Shown piece by piece: positions 3,989 to 35,966 of a stretch of 50,545 bases of DNA. The notes under the pieces are model-generated. The model searched no databases, was not told the DNA's origin, and was given only the letters and a program-made list of their open reading frames with translations. The translations under genes were made by a program, and so were the position numbers. Location: the NCBI GenBank assembly GCA_000934665.2, contig JYFJ02000726.1, forward strand, positions 62,001 through 112,545, read 5' to 3'. Source of the stretch: Catajapyx aquilonaris (taxonomy: Eukaryota). How positions within the stretch are numbered: the first letter of the stretch is position 1; each line of letters starts with the position of its first letter.

Positions 3989-5863
<1,875 letters not shown>

Positions 5864-6304
5864 AACATATAAAAGCGCAACACCATTATTGTTAGCATTC
5901 ATATACATACATTCCATCCATTGGATTACCTGGCAGCCGTCCAATTTTTATAATAATTATATTTTGTGTATTAAGCATTGTTTTTGATCCGTCCATATTT
6001 TTGGTCTTCCAGATCTCGCTTTTTGATCATCTTGTTGACTCAATAAATAGCACTATTTTTGTACGACACACAAAATCAGCATTATTATTATTATTATTCC
6101 AGGTGTCACAGCCTCATTATGACAAAACCGCAGACGATTCATCTACATTTTCATAAATTAATTCCGTCATATATGATTTGCCCTCTTTTTAATTTTTAAA
6201 CTTTTTTTAACCTGACACATTTTTTTTCAATTATTTTCCTGCAAATGAAGCATATTGTGCGTTACCAATTAATTGCCAATTTTTTTTGTGGCAAATTACG
6301 AAAA

Positions 6305-6355
6305 TCCCGCCAAAAAGTATCGATATTTTCAGTTACGATAATCAAAGATGGCAGC
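6305..6355 (+). promoter_or_regulatory. Host-type housekeeping promoter of the Harbinger-derived gene (E2F + DRE + YY1-like)
   Basis: tcccgccaaaa (E2F-like, 6305-6315), perfect DRE TATCGATA (6318-6325) and aagatggc (about 6345). A non-coding exon follows, with donor ag|gtaag at 6446 and acceptor tag| at 6543. Confidence 0.55.
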
Positions 6356-6545
6356 CTCCAGTTGAACCCAAATGTTTGACAATTAATTGAATTCGAGCTC
6401 AAATTAACAGATTTAACAAGTAGCTGCGTGCAATTACAGCTTCAGGTAAGATCAATGTGCTTGTTCTGTAATTTAGCATATGTAGCAACAATATTGGTAT
6501 GTATAATTATCAAAAAAAATGAGCTGAAGTCTTACTCACATAGAA

Positions 6546-8107
6546 ATGGACGAAGACCACCTGAATCTTCTGCAGAACATGGCAGCTAATGGAATGGATC
6601 ACAGTGCACTGCATCATTTACCTGAAGCCATCATGAGCATCCAGCATGACTCTTCAGACCGCAGGAGGAAGGTACTGGGCGCACTGATCATTCTTTTGGC
6701 AAACATGCAGAGACAGCATCAGCAAATGATGATGATGATGGCACACCAAAGAGTGGCACTGATCACCGCTCTTTTACTGAGAAGAAGGCGCCGGAGAATG
6801 ATGGCAGACAGCAGGAAGTCCAACCGCGATGTGGAGCGTCAAAGGTGGCTACGGGGTATCAGAAGGAAAAGAATGTAAGTTTCAGATGCCATTAAATAGT
6901 ACGCCGTACCGTTGAAAATGTTTGTGTTGCAGCTCATCGAGTAAGGATCTGGACGTGCGGGTGCCCAAATTCCGTATGTCTTTTCTTAAAGACAGATCGT
7001 TCGACCTGCCTTCTGTCCTGGGCGTCCCTCATCATGTCTTCTGGTTACTTATCCAGATGTGCGCCACAAACCCAAAGCCAAAGTCGCACCACCTGTCTCA
7101 AGACGTGGAGCTTGCATTGTTCCTATACTGGCTCTACACTGGTGCACCTCTGTGGCACGTGGGGTATGCATTTGGAGTTGGTTGTGCCTTAGCCGATGCG
7201 GTTGTCATGAGGACGCTGCGACATTTGTACCTTCTGGTGGACAAACATGTCCACTTTCCATCTGAGCAGCAAGCAAGACGCATTGGGGCTGGATTTGCAT
7301 CGTCTGCTGGAAGCCGTGCATTTGGGACAAGTGCTGGTGCGCTTGTCGTCACAGAGGTGAAGTGGTGTAGAAAAAACTCTGATTATCTATTGTGACATTA
7401 ATCTAATTCTTCTGGTGCAGGTTGGGTACCGCACGGGCTCCGACGTAATGATGCAGCAATTGCTGGTTGACCACCGCAGCCGAATACTGAATTCTTTTAC
7501 CACCCTGACCCGTAGCAATTGCAAGATGATCCTGAGGAGTAGTCCTTTGTACAAGAGATGTGCGTACTCACCATCAGGGAAGGTGATTTTAGCCTCGAGG
7601 AATTTCCCATGCTTATCATCGCCCCTGCACATTTTGCCACCTTACTCAGAAACCTCACTAGCTCTTACCTCCCCTGAAGCCATCATGTTTAACATACATC
7701 ACTCGCTGGCAATGGCACCAGCTAAACGAGCACTTAGGTTGCTAAGGACTCGGTGGCCTGCTGTGTACACTAGGTGGGTAACATTTAATTAGACATGTAC
7801 AGAATGTGACATGATTTATTTTACTGGCAGGCCATTGGGAGTGTCCCCGCATATAGTTCCGATGGTTTTGTCCGTTTGTACTCTTCTCCACAACGTGTGC
7901 CTTCAGATGGGATGGGAGGAGCCACATGGTGGTGACCCGTCAGATGAAGAGGATGAGGACGGGGCAGTCGATCTGAAGAAGGGGGAGAAGGACGGGGAAG
8001 AGCTCCGCAGGAAAGTGGCTGACCAGTTGTTGAGCAGGGAGGACGGTGATTACAACAGTGCACTTCAGGAAATGGGACATGATCACGATTATGCCATGTC
8101 CCCATGA
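6546..8107 (+). CDS. PIF/Harbinger transposase-derived (HARBI1/ALP1-like) protein, about 460 aa, catalytically dead; exons 6546-6874, 6933-7356, 7421-7773, 7831-8107
   Basis: Spliced CDS is 1383 nt, open, with phase-compatible GT-AG introns. It has the HTH-like LFLYWLYTGAPLWHVGYAFGV, FAxxAGSRAF, ILRSSPLY, FNIHHS..RTRW and VCTLLHNVCL blocks of Harbinger transposases. Confidence 0.85.
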
Positions 8108-8126
8108 CCAATTAAACGGTGTTCCC

Positions 8127-9448
8127 TTAATGCTCGTTTATGATCGCTTGTGTTAACCTGTTGATGGCACCCAAGAGTGCATCGTTGTTCTTGATGAAGC
8201 TCTGCTGCATCTGAACCATCAGCCTGTTACTCTCTTCCAGGTGACGCAACAATGCTGCCTCCACCTCAGGGATGTTTGGCTGCTTTGCGCTACGTGGCCG
8301 CTTTGGAGGTGCCACTGTCTCACTATCTTCCACCTCACTCTCTGCCTCATCCGGGTCCATCAACCTCTGTGTGCTTCTCAAAGACCGCTTACGGAGTTGC
8401 CTGGAATCACATTATCTGTAGTACAGCATTGAACAGCGATTAATGCGACACTGACATTGTCGGCTCAGGAATGTCTGCCGCATCATCAACGTTCCCTTTC
8501 TGATCCTTCTCTCCCATTATCTGCTCCATCAGATCATAAAACATCCATGTGTTTTGGCTAAAAGACTGCCGATTGGACGTCTTGATATCCTGCAACACCG
8601 CAATTTTATCAGCAACATGCTCAAAACGATTCAACCAAACTTGCCTTGTAATGTTGGCACAAGTTGGACCACTTCTTCCGGCACTGGTCCGCCATAATCA
8701 GGCCATCAATCCCAAGCTCTTGCATAATCCCCCTTTAAAAAAGGAGATTCTCATTAAGTCGCTGCGAGTACACTACAAGTACTCGTACTCACTCCCATGC
8801 AGTCTTGGCCGAATTCCGCTTCCCCGTGAAATCGAAGCGACGTTCATACCGCAGCTGGATGAAGCGCCTGGTCAGTTCATCAGTCCCTTCGTACATTAAC
8901 GAGTTATTAATTAACTAGCAAGAAGCCTGTTTCACAGCAACAATCGCTGTTGATATCATAGCAACCTGTTGCCATGGACATTGTATAAAAAGGGTTGCCA
9001 TGGACAAACTTTCTCTTACATATGTAACAAAGTTTGTCCATGGGAACTGGTTATTAATCTTGTTATATCCTTTTTATACTTGAGAAAGTTTGTCCATGAC
9101 AACCCTTTTTTATACTATGTCCATGGCAACTGGTTGCTATGATATATGAGTGTAAAATATCATGGTAACCAGTTCCCATGGCGTCCCCGCTGTCATGGAC
9201 AAACAAGCAAACAAACTTTCTCTTATATGCAGGTAAGATATAACTGGTTGCCATGTTGACCCCACTGCCATGGACGCACAAACAAGCAAACAAACTTTAC
9301 CTTATATATGCTGTTTAGCCTATGTACCATATGTAAGATTAATTAATTACAGCCGAGTTCTACCCTGATAATTAGCATAATTGTGTGACCTACATTTAAA
9401 CTGCAATCCGAGTATATCTTCTGGAGGGCAAGGGTCATTTGAGGTCAT
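8127..9448 (-). CDS. Myb/SANT (trihelix-like) DNA-binding protein of Harbinger ORF1 type, 214 aa; exons 9448-9394, 8886-8793, 8732-8645, 8589-8456, 8400-8127
   Basis: Spliced CDS is 645 nt: MTSNDPCPPEDILGLQFKWTDELTRRFIQLRYERRFDFTGKRNSAKTAWEGIMQELGIDGLIMADQCRKKWSNLCQHYKDIK...TWMFYDLMEQIMG, then a C-terminal coiled coil. The three Trp of the SANT/trihelix are present. One intron is GC-AG. The ORF track shows only fragments of this gene. Confidence 0.85.
8953..9145. repeat. Inverted repeat (foldback/MITE-like) in intron 1 of the Myb/SANT gene; partial copies continue to about 9305
   Basis: atatcatagcaacctgttgccatggacattgtataaaaagggttgccatggacaaactttctc is mirrored by gagaaagtttgtccatgacaaccc...gttgctatgatat. 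Confidence 0.8.
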
Positions 9449-28808: not shown

Positions 28809-30985
28809 TCAATCGTCAGTTACGTCTGGACCGGCCATATTCCTCTGATGCTTATGCTCTAGTTCCATTCTGTACCTTTGAAGTTCCTGCCAAGGGAAAG
28901 AGAGTTTGTGTCATCACTGTTGAAATGTCATTCGTCATTTGACGGTGATGAACAGCCATACCTCGTCTTTCATTGTTCTTAATTTGTCAACTTGGGGTTC
29001 TCGATATGTCAAGTCCTTTGCAGGGTCTTCAGGCAGAGCACCGTATGATGGGTTAGCAACTTCCTTTTCAGTGCCCTTAGGAAACACCCCATAAAAAACT
29101 TGCTTCCATTGCTCTAGGGCTCCTTGGCCTGAAGGACCTCCGATCAGTTCAAATGAATCAGCCCCAGCCGGAATCAGCAGTGGCTTGTTGTAATCTTGTG
29201 ACAAAACCTTCCTGAAATAAACACTGCTCGTATAGTATCGCTCAGAATAAAAATTGCATTGGTCATATCAGATCTACCGAGCAACACCGAGCTCTAAGCA
29301 ATGGCACTGTTTCAGTATACATACCCAGGCGGACCATGAAAGGCATGGTGCGTTAGAATTTCTTTTGCTCGCTTCACCAATCCCATGTCCTTCGCACTGT
29401 AGAACTGCAGAGTAGCTCCACTTGCATGTGAATAGTAGCGCAACACTCTGCAAACAACTTTTTTGACCTCCGGTTCCAGTTCTTGAAACATATCATACTT
29501 TCCTCCCAGTATGACCAGCGGTATCGGAAGTGGGTCAACATCCTTGCGATCCTGTACCGAAAACAAAACAGCCAAATCATTAGATAAATTCTACAAGGTT
29601 CGAAATACGAGTTGTGTGCAGCAACATGTGAGACTTTGAGGGGCACGGTGATTGCAGTTATCAAGTACACGAAATTGAGCATGACTCGTTACTTTATTTC
29701 TTGTACAGTAGAATCCCGATTATCCAACCTCGGGTTATCCGACCATCCTGCTCCGGCAATAAATCTACGTTTTCTCATGAAATACAGGTACTGTAAAGAT
29801 GCGTTTACACGTGAGCAATTTGACGAGCGAAATCTTCCAGTAGGTTATGTAACCCAAGTAACCAATATTGTTTGAGACGAAATTTCGCTCAGCTTCACTC
29901 ATCAATTTGCTCACATGTAAACACACCTTAATGGTCTACACATTTGTTTTTTCTTAGTTAAATGGTAAATACAGTACAGTAGAGTGTGTGTAAATACGGT
30001 ACGTCACTATTTCTTAGAAAACCATAATATTGTAAGCTATTTCCTGTTTTCAGGAGGTGTATACTCATGCAGGTCACTCACAATCGACAAAGTCGATTGA
30101 CGTCAAAATGACGTCGCCAATGATGACCAGGGCAGGGCGAGGAGAACTGGCGACATCATTTTGACGTCAAACGACTTTGTCGATTGCAAGTGACCTGGAT
30201 GAGTATATGCCTCCATATGTCTTTTCTTGTCTTTCATTAAAGGTTTTTACTCTGATTATCATCGTAACTTTTCTGTTATCTGGTCCCACGAGTGACGGAT
30301 AATCGGGGTTCTACTGTATCTTTCTCATTAATTTGATAACTGAACCTGCTTTACCGGATGGTCCTTCCCAATCCTCTGCTGGGTCTGCTCCTTCAAAATA
30401 TGCGACAGAGACTTTCTCTCCTCCTTATCACGCACGGATTCAATGCTCTTTGTCACCGATGTCCTCAGAGCAGTGACCAGCTTGTGCAGGGTTGTCCACA
30501 CGGCCGTGGGTTTGGACAGATCCACCATGAGGACGGCTGTCAGGTTCTTGAGCCTCTCTGGCGAGGTTGGTGTCGAAAGGAGTGAGTCGCTATGGAGCGT
30601 GCCGCCACCCAGCTCCCAAATGTGGCACACCTCCTTAGCCAGTATGCTCTTGTTCAGCTTGCGGCCAAAGGTGTAGTCCAGCGCCAAGGTTGGTTTGGCA
30701 GCCTCATCCCGCTCCAGGAAGCGGTGGATCAGAGTCGTCTTGCCCTGCGTAAAATGGTGTGAACCGCAAGTGCCGAGCAAACCGTATGAACTTACCACTC
30801 CTGAGCTTCCAAGGAAAAGAAGAGTGGTCTCAGGTGTCCAGCGGTATCCTCCCAAAGGCCCCTCTTGCTGCCTGGCCTGTTCCAAGGCCATGTCGCACAA
30901 GGAAGGACCATTGCTGCTGGAAAATTGCAAGTGTCAAATCAGCCCAATAAACCACCAATAAAATACACCAGTACCTCTGCGGCAT
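28809..30985 (-). CDS. DYNC2LI1: Cytoplasmic dynein 2 light intermediate chain 1 (IFT dynein)
   Basis: P-loop-like [53 protein letters not shown] and DYNKPLLIPAGADSF. Six exons with canonical joins. ATG at 30985, TGA at 28811-28809. Confidence 0.93.
29797..29928. mobile_element. Tourist-type MITE (family shared with 39753-39876)
   Basis: TIRs agatgcgtttacacgtgagcaa / ttgctcacatgtaaacacacct with a TAA TSD. Confidence 0.75.
30053..30214. mobile_element. Palindromic MITE-like element
   Basis: ~67-bp arms ggaggtgtatactcatgcaggtcact...gtcgcca / tggcgac...agtgacctggatgagtatatgcctcc. Confidence 0.75.
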
Positions 30986-31110: not shown

Positions 31111-32094
31111 TGTGTCATCAGTGTTGCCAGGTGGATTTGTATGTACAGTACTGTACTTGTACTTGTACTTATTAATTATGTATTGTACTAGTCAATACAG
31201 CAATTACAGTTTGTGACTAACATTAATTAGATACATTTACAACATTTATTTCTGATTGATTTAGTATGAATTCGGAAGGTGTCCGCTACTTGGCAGCACT
31301 TCCCACTAACTTAAAGTGCTTGTAAATTTACACGACAGATGGACTCAAAATGTGAAAGTGAACAAATGTGTTTGCAAAAAAAATTATGCAAAAATTATGC
31401 AAATTTTTTTGCATTGTTCTTGCGAATCTAGGTCAATGCACCGGCAAATGCACCGTGAAAGAAATTAAAAGTGTCTGCTTTTTTTCGCCAATAACTACAT
31501 TCGAATAAGTAGTTGTGCAAATAATTTCCAAACAAATTTTTAGCGAATATTGTATTTAAAAACTGCAACGATATACAGTACGTTATAAAAGTACATTTTA
31601 TCTTTGAAATTTCGGTGCCTATTAATGTGCAAAAAAAATAAATCGCGCGCCAATCCGCCATTTTTTCGCGACACACCTACATTATTGCGAATGCGCGAAC
31701 TCCGCGCGAACTTATTTATCCCCATTATTCCAAACAATTCACGCAAACAAACAAAAAACAATTTATTTAATCAATAATTATTTTGCATAGTTACCAATAA
31801 CCTTGCATCTGTTACGCCATGAAATAATTGTTGTATTGCCAACTCTGTCAAAATTCCAAGGACTCGCCAAAAAAAAAGAGTGACAGTTGACCTTGCCCAA
31901 CATTAGACTGATTATTCGAGCTTCGTCGAGGCATTGTTGCAGTACAAGTGTACAACCAATGTGGTATGACCACATGACAAGACCTGCAAGTGCACAACAA
32001 TAAGTGGGAGATGAGCCGTTGTTGAACAGCTGGTAAATTCCGCAACTGTTGCATGTCGTTGAGTCCATAATAAACCGCAGTTACTTGCAGAGCG

Positions 32095-33729
32095 ATGCCA
32101 CGACTGAAGCGTCCATCGTCGCTGTACTACCAGTGCCTGCACAGCATTGTCCTGCGCGTGATCGACAAGTGCCGAAGGAAACCTGGCGAGTGCAAGACGT
32201 CGCTGAGTGAGCTGCGTCGACACCGTTTGGCAGAGTACATCGAGAGCATTCCCAACTATGCGGCCAACGAGTACACGGCCGAGGTGCTCCGTCAGCTGGC
32301 GGACATCGATCCGTCTGAAGTGTGGGTCCACTGGCTGCTGCATCCGGGAACCACTCAGCTGCAGGCCACCCAGAGCTGGAAGATTCTGGACGCCCTTCAG
32401 AAACACTGGGTCGCAATCGTTACGCATTTGCCCGCAATGACGCGTCTGCAGCAGCTGAACCTGGATTTCTGCGGGGCCGGAGTTGCGTCTAAAGATGATG
32501 CAGGGGCTTTCCGTAAGTTTCACGAGAGCCTGGGTCGCTTGCATTGGTTAACGTCTGTGGAACTATCGCATGTGTGTACATCGGAGATACTGCATACCAT
32601 AGCGAACGGATGCCCCCTGTTGAAGAAAGTTGTAGCGGAGGACTGTGCATTGAAATCGCAGGACATACGGGTGTTGCTTCAATGCCGGCACCTCTTACGT
32701 GTGCAAATCGAAAGCTACGACGATCCTGTAACGCCTGAGGATATTGCATACCTTGTTAAAGGCCTTCCGAAGTTGCAGTTCATACTAATCGACGGTGTGA
32801 ATGCACTGATTGACATACTAGCGTCCGACACACCAGATGGTACGACCTACCCAATTCGGACGCTGGGAGTCATCAACGAGACATTAGATTCCGACCACCT
32901 GGATCAAATGTGCCGGATTTTCCCGCATCTAGACCGCCTGCAGTATTTGAGCCCGACGCTTGATGTGTTGTGTACGCTCCGTCGCTTTCCGAAACTGAAA
33001 GAACTGAACATGAAAATCACTGCCAGATCGCACCTTCAAGATCTAGTCGCTTCCGCCACGCTGCAGCCACTTGAAATATTAGGGCTGTTCTTTCCCGAGG
33101 GCAACTCTCCATCGATGTCGACGCTAGGGTACCTCCCGAACCTGACATACTTGGACTTGTTCGCTGCAAGGGACATCGACATTGCTTCAGTCGCCAACTC
33201 CTGCCCATCTCTGAAGGATCTGGTGCTCCGGGATTGTTCGTACATTCCCGTCCGCTCAACCGGATCGCTCCCAAAGCTAAACCAGCTTATGATAACAGGT
33301 GGTTACAACCGTGAGGTGCTATACTACCTTCTGTCCCGGTGTCCTGAAGTCGAGACGCTCATATTGGGCGAGAGTGATTTGGCCCAGGAGACATTCCCAA
33401 TATCGGACCGGTTGTGGCGAAAGGCAGTCCGACACAACCCGATGAATTCTCTCAAAATATTGCAGGTCTGCAGCGGCCGTCTTACACGTGATTTTATATC
33501 AATGGTCCTGAGATCACATCCCTGCCTGACGCGCCTCATTCTGGTCGGAGATCAGTGGAATTCGCAGCTTCCGGAGTCGGCCTTTCCTCAGCTTAATGAA
33601 TCGCTACGGAAATTCGACATGACTGTAACCGTGACAGGTGCTGGGACACACTTTTATTGCTACTCCGACACATCAGTTGAAGCCAACAGCGACTGGGAAG
33701 CACTTGAAGTCATTGGCTCGATATCCTAA
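32095..33729 (+). CDS. Intronless RNI-like leucine-rich-repeat protein with N-terminal BC-box, 544 aa
   Basis: Long open frame after acceptor ttgcag (32090). Repeated CPxLKxLxL / LPxLxxLxL units, N-terminal SLYYQCLHSI, and AATAAA at about 33927 and 33951. Confidence 0.8.
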   Translation: MPRLKRPSSLYYQCLHSIVLRVIDKCRRKPGECKTSLSELRRHRLAEYIESIPNYAANEYTAEVLRQLADIDPSEVWVHWLLHPGTTQLQATQSWKILDALQKHWVAIVTHLPAMTRLQQLNLDFCGAGVASKDDAGAFRKFHESLGRLHWLTSVELSHVCTSEILHTIANGCPLLKKVVAEDCALKSQDIRVLLQCRHLLRVQIESYDDPVTPEDIAYLVKGLPKLQFILIDGVNALIDILASDTPDGTTYPIRTLGVINETLDSDHLDQMCRIFPHLDRLQYLSPTLDVLCTLRRFPKLKELNMKITARSHLQDLVASATLQPLEILGLFFPEGNSPSMSTLGYLPNLTYLDLFAARDIDIASVANSCPSLKDLVLRDCSYIPVRSTGSLPKLNQLMITGGYNREVLYYLLSRCPEVETLILGESDLAQETFPISDRLWRKAVRHNPMNSLKILQVCSGRLTRDFISMVLRSHPCLTRLILVGDQWNSQLPESAFPQLNESLRKFDMTVTVTGAGTHFYCYSDTSVEANSDWEALEVIGSIS

Positions 33730-34089: not shown

Positions 34090-35382
34090 TCACGTGTCAT
34101 CCCAATGGTTAACCATGTCTTCTTCCAACAAGGGGCTCCAGTTGGGAGACTGGCACTGCGTCGCTGGCCATCCAAAGTCGTCCACACACATCCACCTCTG
34201 GGTGGCCGTCTGCAGATCCAGTCCGCTGCTGGCGGCATCCTCCTCAATCTTGGGGTACCTCCATGTGTTAGGCGCAAATCGGATCCCAGTGCTGTTCTCC
34301 ATCACCGTTCGGCTGGTCACCGCCACGTACATGTCGCAGTTATGTGAAGAATGGATCCGTATCTGTAAATAGGTCGGATGTTACATGTGGTTCTCCCAGC
34401 GCACTGTGCCTCCTACAATATCCAACACCTACTCCTTCATTATGAGCAGGAAGTACAGCAGCCAGACCATCATTTAAATAAGTGGTCATCACCGCAAATA
34501 GATTACAAGGCAAGGCGCCGGCAAGTTTCCTTACACAATTAAGTCAATCTTTGTAATCTGCCGCACTGCACGCTCGTATTTGGCCAAAATTTAACAACTA
34601 AAATCGCATGACTTCTGTTAACGTACCTGGTGTGCAGCAATGGACATGGTGCAACCGCTACACGCCTCCACCATGATGGATGAGGCGACTGGCCCGCACA
34701 GAATGTGGCAATCGACCAGGCTCACGGCTTGAACGGCAGCGGGAACACCTTCCATCACCACCGTGCATCCGACCAGCTCGTGCAGCAGTACGTCTTGGCC
34801 CATTAGCTCCTTCCTGGACAGCCTGACCGTCTCCCCCTTACGGGCCCTTACCATCACCGACGCTTCAAGTGAATTATCCGGCTTCTCTCCATCAGGAAGC
34901 TGCTCTAACACCGCTGAATCCTTGCTTATCTGTTTCTGTTCCTCTGCCTGTATCTCTCTAAGTGGCTTTGACAATGCTCGTGAACGGAATCCAAATCGCT
35001 TCTTAGGTCGTACCCTGGCTTCGGTCGAGTCTCGAATCCGTTGCAGTTGTGCTAAGGTCTCCTGTGAGCGTCGTAAGTCATATGCGGGCAGGAAATGGGA
35101 AGCATCCAACAACGCCTTCTGCATTCGCTGTAAAATCGTGCAAGCCTCGTCCACCTCCACTCCGGACTGTGCCTTCTCAAGTCGTGACTCAACATCCTTG
35201 CGTAGGTCATTGAAACGGGCGTAAAACTGTGCTGGTGTCTCCTCCAGCTGGTCCATGGTTGGCATCTTCTGCTTGGTCAGGAGCCTGTGGCGTTCCTCCA
35301 GGCGCCCTATCACATCTCGGTGGCGGTCAGTGGGGGTGAAGGGTCCACCACCCACAATGCCATTCTCCTCCATCACTTTCAT
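34090..35382 (-). CDS. TBCC: Tubulin-specific chaperone C; exons 35382-34627 and 34362-34090
   Basis: DASHFLPAYDLRRSQ, VRPKKRFGFR, C-CAP/cofactor C domain LCGPVASSIMVEACSGC..AHQ-IRIH..RFAP..VDDFGW..SPNW. Confidence 0.93.
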
Positions 35383-35966
35383 GGCTTAAGTTTTCCCTCA
35401 GCCACCCACACCGTCAAGTCTTGATCACGGGCTTTGTAGTTGCTGTCTGCAAATTCACCAACCTTGTAGAAACCTGCGGAGAATATGAGGAGTTAATCAC
35501 AAGAGCCTTGGTTATTATCATTAGACGATTAATTAGTAGGGTACGGCATTATAAAACACAAATTTCTCACAGTCACATGCTTTCCTTTCACATTAAAGAT
35601 ACTCTTCCAAGCACATGTCTTGCCAGACTGTTATTGCTAAAATTAGCCGGACAGTCACATCACATTTTTTGAACAGCTGCCAGTTTTCCCGTGGCAGTTT
35701 ACTTGCGGTGATTCAACTATTTGAATTCTACACCTTTCCAACTAGAAACTTCAATATTATCGGATCATTACAAGGTTCCAAATGAAAGGTTTTAACTGAC
35801 CGTCCAACACCCAGTTGTAGTTGTTGTGCATGTACAACCTAAAGTCTCGAGATCTGTTCATACGATGCCAGAGACAAAAGGTGGCAAGGAAGGCACCAGC
35901 CTCAATCGCCAGGATGCCTTTGATTGAAGAGCGAAGTAAACGACGCTTCGGCTCCTTATGAAGCAT
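35379..35966 (-). CDS. CEBPZOS: CEBPZOS-like small membrane/mitochondrial protein, 86 aa; exons 35966-35801 and 35473-35379
   Basis: IKGILAIEAGAFLATFCLWHRMNRSRDFRLYMHNNYNWVLDG-FYKVGE...RDQDLTVW matches recalled CEBPZOS (FKGVLVAE..KMHTSQDFR..ILEVYYK..RELDQKTW). Phase-1 GT-AG intron. Its TGA overlaps the TBCC ATG. Confidence 0.85.

Follow-up and report, generated by a model that had tools for sequence, protein, structure and literature searches.

What can a host retain of a transposase that is no longer able to cut DNA? This question is raised by a stretch of 50,545 nt from the genome of Catajapyx aquilonaris (assembly GCA_000934665.2, contig JYFJ02000726.1, positions 62,001–112,545; hereafter the window, with positions counted from its first nucleotide), in which a gene on the plus strand (6356–8107) encodes a protein of 460 amino acids (aa) related to PIF/Harbinger transposases, with all three residues of the catalytic triad replaced. 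The initial annotation of this gene named no partner; our follow-up analysis added a convergent gene on the minus strand (8127–8896), probably encoding a Myb/SANT-like (trihelix) protein of 199 aa, and it is with this gene on the other strand that the locus makes sense. Based on the evidence given below, we consider the locus to be, probably, an immobilised and co-domesticated pair, in which the Myb-like protein has the dead transposase as its non-catalytic partner.

The former catalytic site and its scaffold

As shown by comparison of amino acid sequences, the plus-strand gene descends from the PIF/Harbinger transposase superfamily (DDE_Tnp_4). Its central exon (7421–7771) alone matched the Pfam family DDE_Tnp_4 (PF13359) with an E-value of 1.1e-6 and 28.7 bits (cut-off 24.8) over profile positions 33–133 of 158, and separate Pfam scans of the N-terminal exon, the exon with the helix-turn-helix (HTH) region, and the C-terminal exon gave no meaningful match. 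A HMMER search with the same exon against 1.84 billion representative proteins resulted in 68 matches at E ≤ 1e-3 (best 1.2e-11) with identities of 27–43%, among them neither the protein itself nor a near relative, the closest match reaching 43% identity over this one exon. When the full spliced protein was compared locally with these matches, about 290 residues could be aligned at 27–31% identity, with E-values down to 7e-39. Names were checked for ten of the matches, which comprised five fish, two tick, and one mayfly protein as well as two unnamed metagenome proteins; the names of four fish proteins had been assigned automatically ("putative nuclease HARBI1", "protein ALP1-like", or "uncharacterized protein"), and the fifth was likewise called "uncharacterized protein". 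A word-index search with this exon among longer proteins revealed nothing at E ≤ 0.001, a scan of metagenome contigs for related loci gave no hit, and a sequence search of the PDB yielded only a chance match (E 1.3). In the tree of the family, the window protein stands on a long isolated branch without close kin and groups with no arthropod match.

For a closer view of the active site, the spliced protein was aligned by MAFFT L-INS-i with 23 and then with 61 relatives, 7 of the 68 matches having been dropped for several repetitive matching stretches. The position of the first aspartate is occupied by V248 (codon 7345–7347), where G-A-I-D-G-C-H is replaced by G-A-L-V-V-T-E and aspartate is found in 34 of the 44 filled cells of the relatives. 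The second aspartate, present in 56 of 61 relatives, corresponds to S310 (codon 7595; I-L-[AG]-D-G-G-Y-P-C versus I-L-A-S-R-N-F-P-C), and the glutamate, present in 51 of 58, to K353 (codon 7724; I-I-E-R-A-F-G-x-x-K-T-R-W versus P-A-K-R-A-L-R-L-L-R-T-R-W). The H-D motif was lost as well, since P-G-S-V-H-D aligned with T-R-S-gap-N-C, leaving N284 and C285 at positions where relatives carry histidine (49/58) and aspartate (51/59). No other register supplies an acidic residue, because conserved anchors (GA[IL], [YF]PC, and RA[FL]..RTRW) adjoin each of the triad positions; moreover, the stretches around the second aspartate and the glutamate (A-S-R-N-F and A-P-A-K-R-A-L-R-L-L-R) contain not a single D or E. 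Thus, the four replacements described in the initial annotation (GAIDG by GALVV, GSVHD by TRSNCK, LGDSGYP by LASRNFP, and VIERAF by PAKRAL, with V, S, and K at codons 7345, 7595, and 7724) were recovered with exact coordinates. The annotation had also allowed for an alignment that places acidic residues at the triad and for alternative splicing that restores GAIDG. The former were not seen in the MAFFT alignment with its adjoining anchors, and with regard to the latter, no G-A-I-D-G-like string occurs in any plus-strand frame of 6300–8200; the sole spliced contig uses the junction VVTE/VGYR, and retention of the intron after V-V-T-E leads to a stop after 12 further codons.

Further changes affect the surroundings of the triad. 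The loop from the first aspartate position to the next conserved glutamine comprises 15 residues instead of the 27–28 found in 27 of 40 relatives, in line with the shortened NRK loop noted before, and the recognition helix of the HTH region, earlier called degenerate, retained one of seven majority-residue columns. The structural blocks ILRSSPLY, FN.HHS, RTRW, and CTLLHNVCL, which had been described as kept together with the reading frame, do line up with their counterparts in the family, and the frame of 460 codons is open. Altogether, loss of nuclease chemistry is firmly supported by the alignment, as all triad positions are non-acidic and the anchors fix the register; because D, D, and E are changed to V248, S310, and K353, coordination of the catalytic metal ions would be impossible.

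The initial annotation had proposed to superpose a predicted model on an RNase H-like DDE core. We modelled exon 7421–7771 with an alignment of 55 rows, which resulted in a mean predicted local distance difference test score (pLDDT) of 87.2 and a predicted template modelling score (pTM) of 0.76, the first strand lying outside the model in the previous exon. Foldseek comparison of this one-exon model with the PDB gave nothing at E ≤ 0.001. Using VIA-align against 48,161 representative chains, retroviral integrase cores ranked at the top, namely those of SIV (Z 6.6, rmsd 3.4, 94 aligned), PFV (Z 6.1), and ASV (Z 5.8), followed at Z 4.7–3.3 by IstA, Tn5, TnsB, Mu, Hermes, piggyBac, Sleeping Beauty, and Mos1. 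All values (Z ≤ 6.6) stay below the caution line of the tool (Z 8). The structural matches, without proving it, are consistent with an RNase H-like core that has been kept.

Among the matches, two tick proteins from two genera (P0054 and P0060) also show a 15-residue loop (a deletion of 12 residues) and have lost the H-D motif, the second aspartate, and the glutamate, while the first aspartate is kept. In the tree, both join with good support at the end of a long stem, and they might represent a separate domesticated dead Harbinger gene in ticks. A kinship with the window protein was considered and rejected, since the tree does not join them and BLAST revealed 27% identity, no closer than to fish elements.

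A spliced gene and its convergent, probably Myb-like partner

Exons of the transposase-derived gene were first predicted from reading frames and splice signals and then checked, for the region 6000–9000, against contigs of two public runs, namely run X5, whose sample and study differ from those that probably gave rise to the window, and the DNA run X1. The gene consists of five exons, four of them coding. The 5′ untranslated exon (6356–6445) starts where the X5 contig starts, so that the real 5′ end may lie further upstream. Coding exon 1 (6544–6874, ATG at 6546) encodes residues 1–109/110 with a helical, arginine-rich N-terminal region, coding exon 2 (6933–7356) the HTH region up to G-A-L-V-V-T-E, and coding exon 3 (7421–7773) the DDE_Tnp_4 core with the shortened loop, T-R-S-N-C, S310, and K353; coding exon 4 (7831–8107) contributes CTLLHNVCL as the last core helix, an acidic tail, and the C-terminal D-H-D-Y before the stop codon (8105–8107). 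The coding sequence (CDS; 6546–6874, 6933–7356, 7421–7773, and 7831–8107) comprises 1383 nt and 460 codons with one terminal stop. All four introns (6446–6543, 6875–6932, 7357–7420, and 7774–7830) are of the GT..AG type, the first of them (98 nt) showing these ends when the cut is shifted by two places to the right.

A contig of 1999 nt from run X5 skips all four plus-strand introns and revealed zero base differences from the window. In the DNA run X1, the unspliced form was found in one contig and the joined form was absent. The X5 contig also carries the 3′ untranslated region of the transposase-derived gene on into the partner gene and lacks the introns of that gene as well. Because introns of both senses are absent from it, a retrocopy is excluded, and the contig must have been assembled from two overlapping spliced RNAs of opposite sense. 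From this single contig, which crosses both genes, we infer that both members of the pair are transcribed and spliced and that their 3′ ends overlap, the two stop codons being separated by a spacer of 19 nt (8108–8126).

Two observations on the coding sequence may be added. The D-H-D-Y at the C-terminus (8078–8104) follows a variable acidic tail and is kept in many relatives from fish, ticks, and mayfly, which makes it a candidate for a short binding motif. In addition, the CDS contains a direct repeat of 32 nt (6621–6652 and 7673–7704) that is 75% identical, with the first 15 nt identical throughout; P-E-A-I-M is encoded by both of its units, the first in the N-terminal region and the second directly ahead of F-N-x-H-H-S, and the repeat may be due to chance or to a small internal duplication.

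The partner gene reads from an ATG at 8896 to a stop codon at 8129–8127 on the minus strand, and the X5 contig leaves an open frame of four coding exons (8896–8793, 8732–8645, 8589–8456, and 8400–8127). Its introns (8733–8792, GT-AG; 8590–8644, GC-AG; 8401–8455, GT-AG) read CT..AC, CT..GC, and CT..AC on the plus strand, respectively, and the unusual GC-AG intron is supported by the spliced contig with a junction ambiguity of 3 nt. A piece-by-piece Pfam scan resulted in one match of the exon 8645–8731 (29 aa) to Myb_DNA-bind_4 (PF13837) with an E-value of 0.0035 and 18.2 bits, which is under the cut-off (27), and no match was obtained with any of the three remaining pieces. The tryptophans at residues 34, 56, and 79 show the spacing of a Myb/SANT trihelix, and a Myb/SANT-like identity of the gene product is therefore probable on the grounds of its sequence. 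A transposase gene together with a Myb-like gene makes up the defining two-gene content of Harbinger elements as they are presented in PMC9179366 and PMC9710019.

A possible contact between both products was modelled with fragments. For the N-terminal exon of the transposase-derived protein (109 aa) and the C-terminal exon of the partner (90 aa), the predicted complex scored 0.54 versus 0.04 for the best of three controls; the runs agreed in at least 71% of contacts, and the pLDDT of the partner was at least 63. Of 78 solved complexes, 51 attained the mark applied here, as did 2 of 108 mismatched pairs, and scores of up to 0.60 were obtained for five of the 78 solved complexes, yet for all four passing mismatches out of 180. 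Thus, the model lends weak support to binding of the N-terminal region to the C-terminal region of the partner.

Taken together, these features would fit a PIF/Harbinger transposon that was immobilised and retained by the host as two genes. One of them would encode the 460-aa protein, in which the RNase H-like DDE_Tnp_4 scaffold is presumably kept and catalytic metal ions would not be coordinated; the other, the Myb/SANT-like DNA-binding partner of the element, would be transcribed convergently with overlapping 3′ ends. After the loss of catalysis, purifying selection may have kept the frame open, and the dead transposase may now act as a non-enzymatic subunit, its N-terminal helical region bound to the helical C-terminal part of the Myb-like protein. 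The latter, with its three tryptophans, would supply nuclear import and DNA targeting and so tether the dead transposase to DNA, in the way in which the transposase of Harbinger3_DR, HARBI1, and ALP1 work with their respective partners (the Myb-like protein of the element, NAIF1, and ALP2).

Just upstream of the start of the partner gene, nested palindromic repeats extend over 8953–9340. Their arms were located at 8953–8994/9104–9145 (42 nt, 93%) and 8987–9015/9082–9110 (29 nt, 97%), and the unit around GTTGCCATGGACAAAC recurs at about 9191 and about 9266. As short additional contigs of the DNA run match only at 8942–8991, this unit is repeated elsewhere in the genome. The cluster may represent an element resembling a miniature inverted-repeat transposable element (MITE), or else a palindrome belonging to a promoter; a connection with Harbinger ends did not emerge.

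Probable retention by the host and competing explanations

Hallmarks of a mobile element were not detected around the pair. No inverted-repeat pair flanks the region 6000–9400, though diverged or very short terminal inverted repeats (TIRs) could escape such a search, and the only inverted pair spanning the locus (arms of 17 nt, 82%) is at chance level. Likewise, neither TIRs of 25–50 bp nor a 3-bp target-site duplication (TSD) were found around both genes, no second copy of the gene occurs within the window, and in DNA run X1 only one contig covers the gene at an identity of at least 90%. Judged from these sequences, the locus seems to be neither a live nor a recently dead transposon, and the pattern of an intact, expressed transposase-derived coding gene without transposon hallmarks is that of the domesticated type.

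The divergence of the protein was then considered against that of the family. The triad was filled in all three columns in 41 relatives, of which 26 had it intact, 11 had lost one residue, four had lost two, and none had lost three. In columns conserved at 80% or more, the window protein keeps 28 of 48 and loses 20 (42%), the lowest value of all 62 rows, and at a threshold of 70% or more, 40 of 76 columns are kept and 36 lost. With this latter background, any three specified columns would, according to our own arithmetic, all be lost with a probability of about 0.1, so that the triple loss, decisive for the chemistry, is not statistically extreme alone. The lost columns cluster at the former active site (D-G-x-H, D-x-x-x-G-x-P-G-S-x-H-D, G-D-G-G-Y, and E-R-x-x-G-x-x-K-x-R-x-R), and scaffold prolines, aromatics, and buried hydrophobics are retained. 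The end branch of the window protein in the tree measures 1.91 versus a median of 0.63.

For an estimate of neutral decay, random substitutions were introduced into the CDS in 2000 runs per level, with a transition bias of 2 and without insertions and deletions (indels) or loss of splice sites, on the premise that an active ancestor carried the near-invariant residues of the family. An open frame was left in 221 of 2000 runs with 10% of residues replaced, in 28 at 20%, in 2 at 30%, and in none at 42%. As no simulated run that reached the observed loss retained an open frame, the frame was probably held by selection. With respect to codon composition, the GC content at third codon positions (GC3) of 0.56 lies between the values of neighbouring host open reading frames (ORFs; 0.48–0.67), with 0.30–0.40 GC in the introns, which we regard as weak evidence, and the correlation of relative synonymous codon usage with the pooled neighbouring ORFs (0.57; out-of-frame controls 0.41 and −0.06) is too weak to carry weight.

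Several points weigh against the reading as a co-domesticated pair. No orthologue or paralogue was found by the word-index search, among the 1.84 billion representatives, or in metagenome contigs, and there is hence neither cross-species synteny nor a ratio of nonsynonymous to synonymous substitutions (dN/dS), both of which serve as criteria in domestication studies such as PMC9710019. Purifying selection is for this reason deduced rather than measured. The initial annotation had read the pattern as selection for the fold rather than for nuclease activity; of this, the loss of the nuclease stands with the triad and the retention of the fold is supported, and the part on selection has the standing just given. 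Furthermore, the consensus used for the conserved columns is dominated by fish elements, and the ancestor of this lineage may have lacked some of the 20 lost columns from the outset; part of the divergence may also predate immobilisation, in a transposon lineage unlike that consensus. No near relative of the species was seen in the protein collections: the neighbouring CCDC85 gene had its best match in a fish protein (46% identity over 67% of the query), followed by many arthropods with the conserved core only, and the query with the TBCC neighbour gave no match at E ≤ 1e-10. For this reason, the window protein looks more remote from the known transposases than it is from the unseen Harbinger families of its own genome. 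In addition, run X5 is not on record as RNA, its nature following from the GT-AG skips on both strands, and the genome may contain further copies of less than 90% identity. Finally, the Myb assignment goes back to a sub-threshold match of one short exon, and the predicted complex was obtained from fragments without alignments.

A related function would be that of a transposition regulator, in which the dead transposase, with or without its Myb partner, poisons or titrates active Harbinger complexes, acting in a dominant-negative manner like truncated or mutant transposases of other families. The dead site, the kept scaffold, the kept N-terminal partner-binding region, and the tryptophans of the partner fit such a regulator as they fit the co-domesticated pair, for a protein that assembles with the Myb protein and with transposon ends but does not cut would inhibit, and the recurrence of the MITE-like palindromic repeats beside the pair indicates mobile DNA in this genome. 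However, the analysis revealed no active Harbinger element of this lineage, and none occurs in the 50-kb window; the transposase has a degenerate recognition helix in its HTH region, and the nearby palindromes are not linked to Harbinger ends, so that we regard this role as unlikely.

Alternatively, the gene might be a neutral relic, a copy from a lineage-specific Harbinger family that is dead but still transcribed and whose frame is open by chance. Triad losses are not rare, as 15 of the 41 relatives, many of them probably decayed copies, lost one or two of these residues; no orthologue is known, and the triple loss has a chance of about 0.1 given the overall divergence. An open frame was nevertheless left in 0 of 2000 simulations at the observed loss, even with indels and splice-site loss ignored, four plus-strand and three minus-strand introns are still spliced with both genes intact, the TIRs are gone, and GC3 falls within the range of the host ORFs, all of which makes a relic quite improbable. 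That the protein is still a nuclease, with metal bound by other acidic residues such as E251 (in the T-E after V-V, three residues after the first aspartate position and thus close to it) or D268, is most improbable, as the second and third triad stretches are devoid of acidic residues, the third position is a lysine, the adjacent H-D motif is lost as well, and mutation of one triad residue of rice Ping drastically cuts transposition according to the account in PMC4671723.

Known pairs and the surroundings of the locus

Co-domesticated pairs of this kind have been described in Arabidopsis, where the transposase-derived members of ALP1/ALP2 and HDP1/HDP2 lost triad residues, as is the case here, and act via direct binding to the Myb-derived partner and not by catalysis, as far as described in PMC4671723, PMC7282668, and PMC5339849. 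In particular, ALP1 reads DGA in place of DDE (PMC4671723), the triad is reported as lost in HDP1 and ALP1 (PMC7282668), and ALP1 is bound by ALP2 and brought to Polycomb repressive complex 2 (PRC2). Unlike our locus, the Arabidopsis pairs have conserved orthologues and belong to known complexes (PRC2 and a histone acetyltransferase complex); the locus in turn differs from them in that all three triad residues are replaced, and its partner keeps three tryptophans, while ALP2 lost its own. The partners of the Arabidopsis pairs are presumably not adjacent in the genome, in contrast to the tail-to-tail arrangement found here. By analogy with ALP1/ALP2 and HDP1/HDP2, a role of the pair as an adaptor in chromatin or transcription seems most likely.

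Adjacent co-domesticated pairs of a transposase-derived and a MADF gene without TIRs are reported for Anopheles and Lepidoptera in PMC9710019. As proposed for the two genes of the locus, both members of APLG/APM (Anopheles), LPLG2/LPM2 (Lepidoptera), and DPLG7/DPM7 (Drosophila) stem from one insertion and are adjacent, single-copy, and without TIRs or TSDs, but their assignment, as given there, is based on synteny across species and on dN/dS values of 0.04–0.18 (PMC9710019), which is not the case for our locus.

Similar partners are known from jawed vertebrates, where HARBI1 and NAIF1 are derived from a Harbinger transposase and from a Myb-like protein, respectively, and bind each other, as would be the case for the pair proposed here; for HARBI1/NAIF1 and for Harbinger3_DR, the Myb-like protein is described as binding the N-terminal end of the transposase, importing it into the nucleus, and binding DNA (PMC9392472). 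HARBI1 is, other than the window protein, restricted to jawed vertebrates according to the same source (PMC9392472). Several of the database matches bear the automatic name "putative nuclease HARBI1", but share no more than about 30% identity with the window protein. An orthologue of HARBI1 was rejected as an explanation, since the triad of the window protein is lost, its branch is long and isolated, and searches with the neighbouring TBCC and CCDC85 genes revealed no close vertebrate orthologues. We take the DDE triad of HARBI1 to be intact, and the genes for HARBI1 and NAIF1 are presumably unlinked. With autonomous Harbinger elements of animals, e.g., the fish elements to which the best matches belong, the locus has in common the DDE_Tnp_4 core, an HTH region, the D-H-D-Y at the C-terminus, introns, and probably the content of two genes; it differs from them in that no TIRs or TSD were found, in being single-copy at 90% identity or more, in the loss of triad, H-D motif, and loop, and in its long branch.

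Domestication of Harbinger transposases gave rise to chromatin regulators in plants and to several uncharacterised genes in animals. Since dead Harbinger-derived proteins with Myb partners are already known from plants, and adjacent pairs without TIRs from insects, the locus would add a member but not a new principle, and only orthologues or a function would make it more valuable. It is distinguished by a triad in which all three residues are replaced, by a tail-to-tail layout whose transcripts presumably overlap, and by a very fast divergence. If read as a co-domesticated pair, it would offer a snapshot of domestication, in which one insertion has kept its two genes in place, the cutting site is erased, and the parts for partner binding and DNA binding are kept, and it would allow a test of whether selection preserves the interaction between transposase and Myb protein.

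A bolder version, which we think doubtful, is a lineage-restricted and fast-evolving co-domestication in which the tail-to-tail layout is itself functional, the 3′ overlap of the mRNAs coupling the dosage of both genes by antisense pairing and the complex either being targeted to DNA sequences as a chromatin adaptor or repressing the Harbinger/Tourist elements that remain in the genome. In that case, the pair would be an animal counterpart of ALP1/ALP2 with all three catalytic residues lost, and the loop deletion and H-D loss of the tick proteins would point to convergent remodelling of dead sites.

As for the surroundings, no RNA families were found by a search with Rfam across the whole window. 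Pfam analysis assigned further ORFs of the window to animal families, namely LURAP (3–743), CCDC85 (4518–5863), a DLIC-like P-loop piece (30331–30933), a leucine-rich repeat protein (32074–33726), and TBCC (34621–35385). The leucine-rich repeat protein comprises 551 aa encoded by a single exon, and the CCDC85 neighbour revealed two overlapping frames with an intron or a frame change near 5084–5117.

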